From: Escherichia coli
Lineage (GTDB): Bacteria; Pseudomonadota; Gammaproteobacteria; Enterobacterales; Enterobacteriaceae
Direction: 5' to 3' (one strand)
Assembly (NCBI RefSeq): GCF_003334385.1
Contig: NZ_QOWN01000082.1
Length of the DNA: 5,257 nucleotides
In this document: one piece after another, positions 5,045 through 5,115 of the stretch
Position numbering within the stretch: the first letter of the stretch is position 1
How the letters are laid out: the number at the start of each line of letters is the position of its first letter
The notes under the pieces: model-generated
Seen by the model: the letters and a program-made list of their open reading frames with translations, nothing else
What the model was told of the DNA's origin: nothing
Databases searched by the model: none
Position numbers and translations under genes: made by a program

Positions 5045-5115
5045 CAACACTTTAAAATGCCCTATATAGGGTTAACCAGTAATTATCTGTATGATAGCTT
5101 TGAGTTCGGGAGGAG

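Follow-up and report, generated by a model that had tools for sequence, protein, structure and literature searches.

A 70-bp remnant of an ompTp-type omptin gene between an IS3 remnant and IS1F upstream of fecIRABCDE in Escherichia coli

The window considered here, i.e. the whole stretch of 5,257 nucleotides that was analysed (Escherichia coli assembly GCF_003334385.1, contig NZ_QOWN01000082.1), is 99.9% identical over its entire length to a segment of the chromosome that ~1409 of 5426 complete E. coli genomes share. The gene order of this segment is best followed in PCP06022, where IS66 tnpA/tnpB/tnpC are followed by a gene for a phytase-like esterase, an IS3-family fragment and an IS5 fragment, and then by a ymgB/ariR-like gene, IS3 pseudogene pieces, a gene for a 20-aa hypothetical protein, IS1F, ykiE and fecIRABCDE. 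The same IS1F-ykiE-fecI order is found in K-12 inside KpLE2, with yjhU beyond IS1F, and fec has been located in KpLE2 in both K-12 and B (PMC3032704). The stretch of interest lies near the end of the window, between the IS3 pieces and IS1F.

On the left of this stretch, positions 4706-5044 (minus strand) are occupied by ~340 bp of IS3, as defined by alignment to K-12 IS3B, with the tip of the left inverted repeat (IRL) at 5044. An exact string search placed the end of the IS3-type tip, ...GGGTAAGATCA, at this very position, in agreement with the original prediction. The IS3 terminal inverted repeat TGATCTTACCCAGC... was found at the tip, and the first 72 nt inward from 5044 match the left end of K-12 IS3B without a single difference, beyond which identity drops to ~88% with indels. 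The start codon of orfA has changed from ATG to AAG and, at ~4807, homology jumps to a short piece encoding the InsF C-terminus (4706-4801, the last ~95 nt of insF), to which position ~246 is joined by an internal deletion. Neither orfA nor orfB is intact, the distal inverted repeat is unrecognisable in the alignment to K-12 IS3B, and PGAP annotates pseudogene fragments at 4708-4812 and 4806-5010. The 'IS3-like element' proposed earlier is thus confirmed as IS3 by the identity of its tip, but all that is left of it is a decayed, internally deleted remnant. Elsewhere in the window (3661-3853, plus strand), an IS629/IS3411-like terminus, ...CCCGGGGCGGTTCA, ends at 3834 and is directly followed by a second IS3 tip of 17 bp, ATTGCTGGATAAGATCA (3837-3853); an IS5 fragment comes next.

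On the right, the tip of IS1, GGTAATGACTCC, begins at 5115, rather than at 5116 as first proposed. Positions 5115-5257 (minus strand) correspond to the right-hand end (IRR side) of IS1F, in which both the terminal repeat and the body of IS1 are recognised; this sequence runs off the window and shows 100% identity to the end of IS1F in K-12. The full element can be seen in PCP06022 (locus 13115-13880), where it is 766 bp long, frameshifted and ends with ...GGCAGCATTACC, with ykiE and fecIRABCDE next to it. The spacer between the two insertion sequences therefore spans 5045-5114 and measures 70 bp by exact string search, one less than the 71 bp given originally. It contains a perfect 12-bp palindrome, CCCTATATAGGG, which does exist as predicted, although the same search positions it at 5060-5071, one base away from the 5061-5072 initially assigned to it. 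The 8-bp palindrome GGTTAACC (5070-5077) does not directly follow the 12-mer, as had been thought, but overlaps it by a shared GG.

The spacer is an internal fragment of an omptin gene of the ompTp type (5045-5114, plus strand), which corresponds to codons 194-217 of 317 in frame 1, with the translation QHFKMPYIGLTSNYLYDSFEFGR. When an intact omptin gene from a ColV plasmid was compared with the window by blastn, a single significant match was found at 5044-5115 (72 nt, 95.8% identity or 69/72, E 3.6e-29), in which the edge bases 5044 and 5115 also match the omptin gene, each boundary being ambiguous by 1 nt. The spacer proper, without these edge bases, is identical to ompTp at 67 of 70 positions, and its frame 1 reads QHFKMPYIGLTSNYLYDSFEFGRR followed by a stop codon, where the intact protein has QHFKMPYIGLTGNYRYDSFEFGGS. 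Homology to omptins was found at the profile, PDB-sequence and DNA levels: the 24-aa spacer peptide matched only omptin models in NCBIfam (NF008222 and NF008224, at profile positions 194-216, with E 7e-8 and 4e-7), while its matches in the PDB were limited to OmpT (7xw0, E 7e-9; 1i78) and Pla. In contrast, none of the attributes of a complete omptin (a start, a signal peptide, the catalytic Asp/His motifs or a full barrel) is found in the spacer. The catalytic motifs VDRDW (102-106) and DNDEH (228-232) both lie outside the fragment, which for this reason cannot encode an active protein, and no other omptin piece was detected beyond 5044-5115 in the window or in the 21-kb locus (blastn with a word size of 7, and tblastn with eight omptins). 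Judged from sequence, the spacer is thus an omptin remnant, homologous to the family without being a member gene.

The fragment differs from the ompTp gene of plasmid pCys-1 at three positions, all of them non-synonymous. One of these differences (CGG to CTG, Leu) reflects natural allelic variation and occurs in the intact gene of p19138_1 as well; the substitutions private to the fragment, G5078A and G5111A, both alter glycine codons. These two changes, though few, fit with relaxed constraint. In pCys-1, the match to the spacer lies inside an annotated omptin CDS, adjoined by genes for an SDR oxidoreductase (hlyF) and mig-14. This omptin-SDR oxidoreductase-mig-14 order is the known ompTp-hlyF-mig-14 locus of ColV-type virulence plasmids, and ompTp and hlyF have been described as genes of the ColV plasmid pS88 (PMC3438092). 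The BLASTn check that had been proposed to trace the original context of the spacer led into an intact plasmid-borne omptin CDS. The suggestion that the spacer might simply be the original target DNA is correct, in a more specific form: it is omptin coding DNA cut by an IS3 end on one side and by an IS1 end on the other. It had been anticipated that the prediction would fall if the spacer matched ordinary intergenic DNA at an uninterrupted locus with no conserved palindrome. This is in substance what was observed: an uninterrupted locus is matched, a gene and not intergenic DNA, and the palindrome is a codon accident there (see below).

How widespread this arrangement is became apparent from a megablast search of 5426 E. 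coli genomes, in which the 70-bp spacer was found in 2534 genomes (2814 records). These records are of two main kinds. About 2050 match at an identity of at least 99% and display the same IS3-tip/fragment/IS1 junction context, while ~760 match at 95.7% inside an annotated, intact CDS for an omptin family outer membrane protease, which in almost every case is plasmid-borne. Searching with the whole omptin gene gave the same bimodal picture, with 731 records intact and the rest reduced to nucleotides 579/582-650. No reciprocal or separate omptin remnants were found in the 5426 genomes, the whole gene yielding 2813 records as against 2814 for the 70 bp, with 60 evenly spaced rows inspected. As for plasmids, 669 of 692 matches show 95-99% identity and, among the matches listed, all lie in intact omptin genes; another 16, with at least 99% identity, are copies of the fragment, and the single copy listed at 100% bears the annotation of the 20-aa hypothetical protein. 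A 150-bp query encompassing both junctions was at least 80% covered in ~2064 of the 5426 genomes, upstream of IS1F-ykiE-fecIRABCDE. Since IS1F-ykiE-fecI itself was found at a coverage of at least 80% in 2565 genomes, roughly four fifths of the IS1F-linked fec loci carry the omptin scrap. Window positions 843 (inside IS66 tnpC) to 5257 are also found on dozens of E. coli plasmids, split into two or three pieces, and the matched region includes annotated copies of IS1. This suggests that the phytase-like gene moves along with the IS cluster, the omptin scrap and fec, all being parts of a single module bounded by IS1.

The junctions offer some clues as to how the fragment came to lie where it does. 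The CAA beside the IS3 tip belongs to the omptin gene itself, which when intact reads AAA CAA CAC TTT at this point. On the IS1 side, target-site duplications had been put forward as something to look for, but no 9-bp duplication was found, IS1 being bordered by TCGGGAGGA towards omptin and by GAAATCCCC towards fec. What lies on the far side of IS1 is ykiE/fecI and not the remainder of the omptin gene. The lack of a duplication argues against a simple insertion of IS1 into the omptin gene. The junction between IS1F and ykiE/fecI (...ATTACC|GAAATCCCCATCC) is identical in K-12 (locus 13473-14240) and in the window lineage, whereas the outer flank of IS1F is yjhU in K-12 and the omptin scrap here, with a 9-bp duplication in neither. 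We infer that the outer side of IS1 has been remodelled, with either an adjacent deletion mediated by IS1 or recombination between copies of IS1 as the mechanism.

A variant of the left junction is found in Nissle 1917 (locus 3925-4001), where the IS629/IS3411-like end seen in the window at 3834 precedes an IS3 tip of 35 bp that contains two SNPs and runs directly into CACTTT, the CAA being absent. This strain is devoid of window positions ~3838-5006 (~1.17 kb), and its junction is 3 bp shorter. One deletion does not suffice to turn the window-type junction into the Nissle one: both SNPs and the absent CAA are concentrated in the tip, which implies that another IS3 copy or another event was involved.

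One feature of the junction could give the impression that it is a gene in its own right. A 20-codon ORF, MPYIGLTSNYLYDSFEFGRR followed by a stop codon (5057-5119, plus strand), is annotated by PGAP as the hypothetical protein WP_113705808.1 (PCP06022 locus 13057-13119). It has an intact frame of 63 nt from ATG to TAA, and most genomes with the fragment have the same annotation. It is nevertheless highly unlikely that the IS1 junction has created a genuine gene for a small protein here, because the ORF is merely the omptin frame read from an internal Met to a TAA provided by the IS1 tip (GG|TAA). Direct reading of the sequence upstream of the ATG at 5057 (CAACACTTTAAA) revealed no purine-rich stretch that could act as a Shine-Dalgarno sequence, and a functional-signal scan of 4900-5257 detected no terminator-like site, nor any promoter-like site in the spacer or upstream of it. 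Moreover, the two private substitutions in the ORF fall on conserved glycines, as would be expected for a decaying remnant, and the identity among copies of the ORF reflects recent common descent and not selection. No Rfam family was found in 4600-5257 at E up to 1, and the predicted RNA fold of the spacer (-9.3 kcal/mol) is weaker than the mean of shuffled sequences (z = +0.99). The annotation WP_113705808.1, which is found in more than 1000 E. coli genomes and underlies the match in most carrier genomes, is thus probably a spurious annotation of the omptin remnant that has been propagated. Two more speculative ideas seem just as improbable, namely that the chimeric ORF might be translated as a microprotein in about a third of E. 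coli strains, or that the AT-rich core of the dyad might be a preferred target or a fragile point for transposons. The latter idea might be suggested by the plasmids of the pPEC1003 type, in which the inverted repeat of a Tn3-family element breaks into the palindrome.

The palindrome was the feature to which attention had originally been drawn, as a possible protein-binding site. In the intact gene, CCCTATATAGGG corresponds to the codons CCC-TAT-ATA-GGG, which specify Pro199-Tyr-Ile-Gly202 of the omptin, and the overlapping GGTTAACC to (G)GG-TTA-ACC (Gly-Leu-Thr). In a DNA alignment of eight omptin genes (ompTp, a 77%-identical IncF omptin, K-12 ompT, ompP, icsP, kop, pla and cpa), the peptide (M/I)-P-Y-(I/V)-G is kept in all eight, but its palindromic spelling is found in ompTp only (CCC TAT ATA GGG). 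The seven others differ from the palindrome at synonymous third positions, so that the peptide is retained and the dyad is lost: the IncF omptin and K-12 ompT both have CCC TAC ATT GGC, ompP has CCT TAT GTC GGT, icsP has CCT TAT ATT GGA, kop has CCG TAC ATT GGC, pla has CCA TAT ATT GGA and cpa has CCG TAT ATT GGC. The other aligned omptins also spell Gly-Leu-Thr otherwise than GGTTAACC. That the peptide has been kept and the dyad has not argues that selection has acted on the former, which belongs to a conserved strand of the barrel, and not on the latter. By enumeration, of the 96 synonymous spellings of Pro-Tyr-Ile-Gly only one is self-complementary, and the ompTp allele happens to use that one. 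Since the palindrome is present base for base in intact genes, it must be older than the IS events.

Nor is a palindrome of this length out of the ordinary. The window contains exactly one perfect palindrome of at least 12 bp, when a first-order Markov model gives a chance expectation of 1.40 per window on average, with one or more in 76% of simulations; many 8-bp palindromes such as GGTTAACC are expected in 5 kb. The probability of finding a 12-bp palindrome in a pre-specified stretch of 70 bp is ~2%, but the stretch was chosen in this case after the palindrome had been seen. The near-identity of the fragment copies in ~2000 genomes is a consequence of recent descent and is uninformative as to selection for the palindrome in its present place. 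As far as can be read from the DNA, the palindrome is an accident of codon choice and amounts to no more than chance would give.

These considerations leave little room for the view that the palindrome and the overlapping GGTTAACC might be recognised by a protein that binds DNA as a dimer, for example one that regulates IS1, IS3 or fec, and have been kept for that purpose, a scenario even less probable than a small-protein gene. Its appeal comes from the perfect 12-bp dyad symmetry and from the ~2% figure for a given 70-bp stretch. However, the palindrome pre-exists in the intact ompTp coding sequence, is absent from the seven other omptin genes that encode the same peptide and corresponds to the one such palindrome per window that chance is expected to produce. 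In addition, a whole IS1 separates it from fecI and there is no promoter-like site near, while in the pPEC1003-type plasmids its left half has been replaced by the Tn3-family inverted repeat and linkage to fec has been kept. Conservation of the dyad at the DNA level was accordingly not found in homologous contexts, be it in the omptins (seven of eight lose it) or in pPEC1003 (where the left half-site is replaced). A protein-binding site is therefore not supported, the palindrome not being conserved as DNA among omptin genes although the peptide is.

The pPEC1003 junction deserves a brief description. In this plasmid (2463-2520), a Tn3-family-like inverted repeat of 38 bp, CTTAACGTACAATATTTTCCGTTTCCCAAACGGAGCCC, abuts the scrap at window position 5065, inside the palindrome, and the junction forms by chance a new 10-bp palindrome, CCCTATAGGG. 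This cut of the scrap is found in a minority of fec plasmids. The last 38 bp have 100% matches in many plasmids, and a 50-bp stretch that includes them has a 92% match under resolvase/recombinase genes.

The least probable possibility of all is that a third mobile element was once lodged between IS3 and IS1 and that the spacer is its scar or terminus, as could be imagined in an IS graveyard with IS66, IS629-like, IS5 and IS3 fragments and IS1 within 5 kb, because all 70 bp (72 with the edges) are colinear and in frame with the omptin gene, the spacer is matched only in omptin genes or in the same junction context, and no terminal-repeat partner was seen for such an element; the earlier proposal that the spacer might be the scar of another element end is thus not supported, the 70 bp being fully explained by omptin with no element terminus present.

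We are left with what is almost certainly the correct reading, in which the spacer is a non-functional 70-bp coding remnant of an omptin of the ompTp clade, as found on ColV/IncF plasmids, and the palindrome is a codon accident. In this reading, the left end of an IS3 copy abuts omptin nucleotide 580 (CAA CAC TTT...) and a copy of IS1 abuts nucleotide 649/650, with the rest of the gene lost. A simple insertion of IS3 may have come first, and a deletion mediated by IS1 or a recombination between copies of IS1 may have come later. The fragment, which does nothing, would since have been a passive passenger of the IS-rich DNA that precedes IS1F-ykiE-fecIRABCDE in many E. coli strains.

The biological weight of a scrap of dead gene is small, and an IS-bounded pseudogene scrap is something ordinary and already known in kind. 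In practice, the remnant can serve as a convenient marker, highly specific for one lineage of the IS-rich DNA that precedes IS1F-fecIRABCDE. About 38% of complete E. coli genomes carry it, BL21 among them; in Nissle-type strains it is 3 bp shorter, and K-12 does not have it. The fact that the intact source gene, ompTp, is found almost only on ColV/IncF virulence plasmids hints that the fec flank may once have exchanged DNA with a plasmid of this type. BL21 is widely described as being without the chromosomal OmpT protease. Upstream of its fec genes, this strain carries a 72-nt scrap of the ompTp type (NZ_CP053601.1, 4403096-4403167). No description of this omptin remnant was found in the literature on fecIRABCDE, IS1 and mobile elements or on ompTp, hlyF and ColV.

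Among known systems, the closest relative of the spacer is the omptin ompTp of ColV/IncF plasmids (NCBIfam NF008222), with which it shares codons 194-217 in the same frame and a palindrome that is identical base for base. It differs from it in that it holds only 7% of the gene and has two private substitutions in Gly codons; furthermore, intact ompTp adjoins hlyF, whereas the scrap resides in a chromosomal IS cluster upstream of fec. The other omptins, i.e. chromosomal OmpT (protease VII, encoded in the DLP12 prophage of K-12), OmpP, IcsP, Kop, Pla and Cpa, have in common with the spacer the β-strand peptide (Q/x)FKMPYIGL. At the DNA level, however, identity with K-12 ompT, ompP and icsP is only ~71-76% over 51-66 nt, and blastn gave no significant nucleotide alignment of the spacer with kop, pla and cpa. 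This low identity, together with the absence of the palindrome in the other omptins, indicates that the fragment comes from the ompTp clade and not from chromosomal ompT. As for its surroundings, the closest parallel is the KpLE2/fec region of K-12, which has the same IS1F-ykiE-fecI junction but no omptin remnant, its outer flank being yjhU. The gene remnants of that region (yjhD, yjhE, yjhV and insO fragments) are of the same nature as the omptin scrap described here, in that they too are short dead pieces trapped between nested IS copies.
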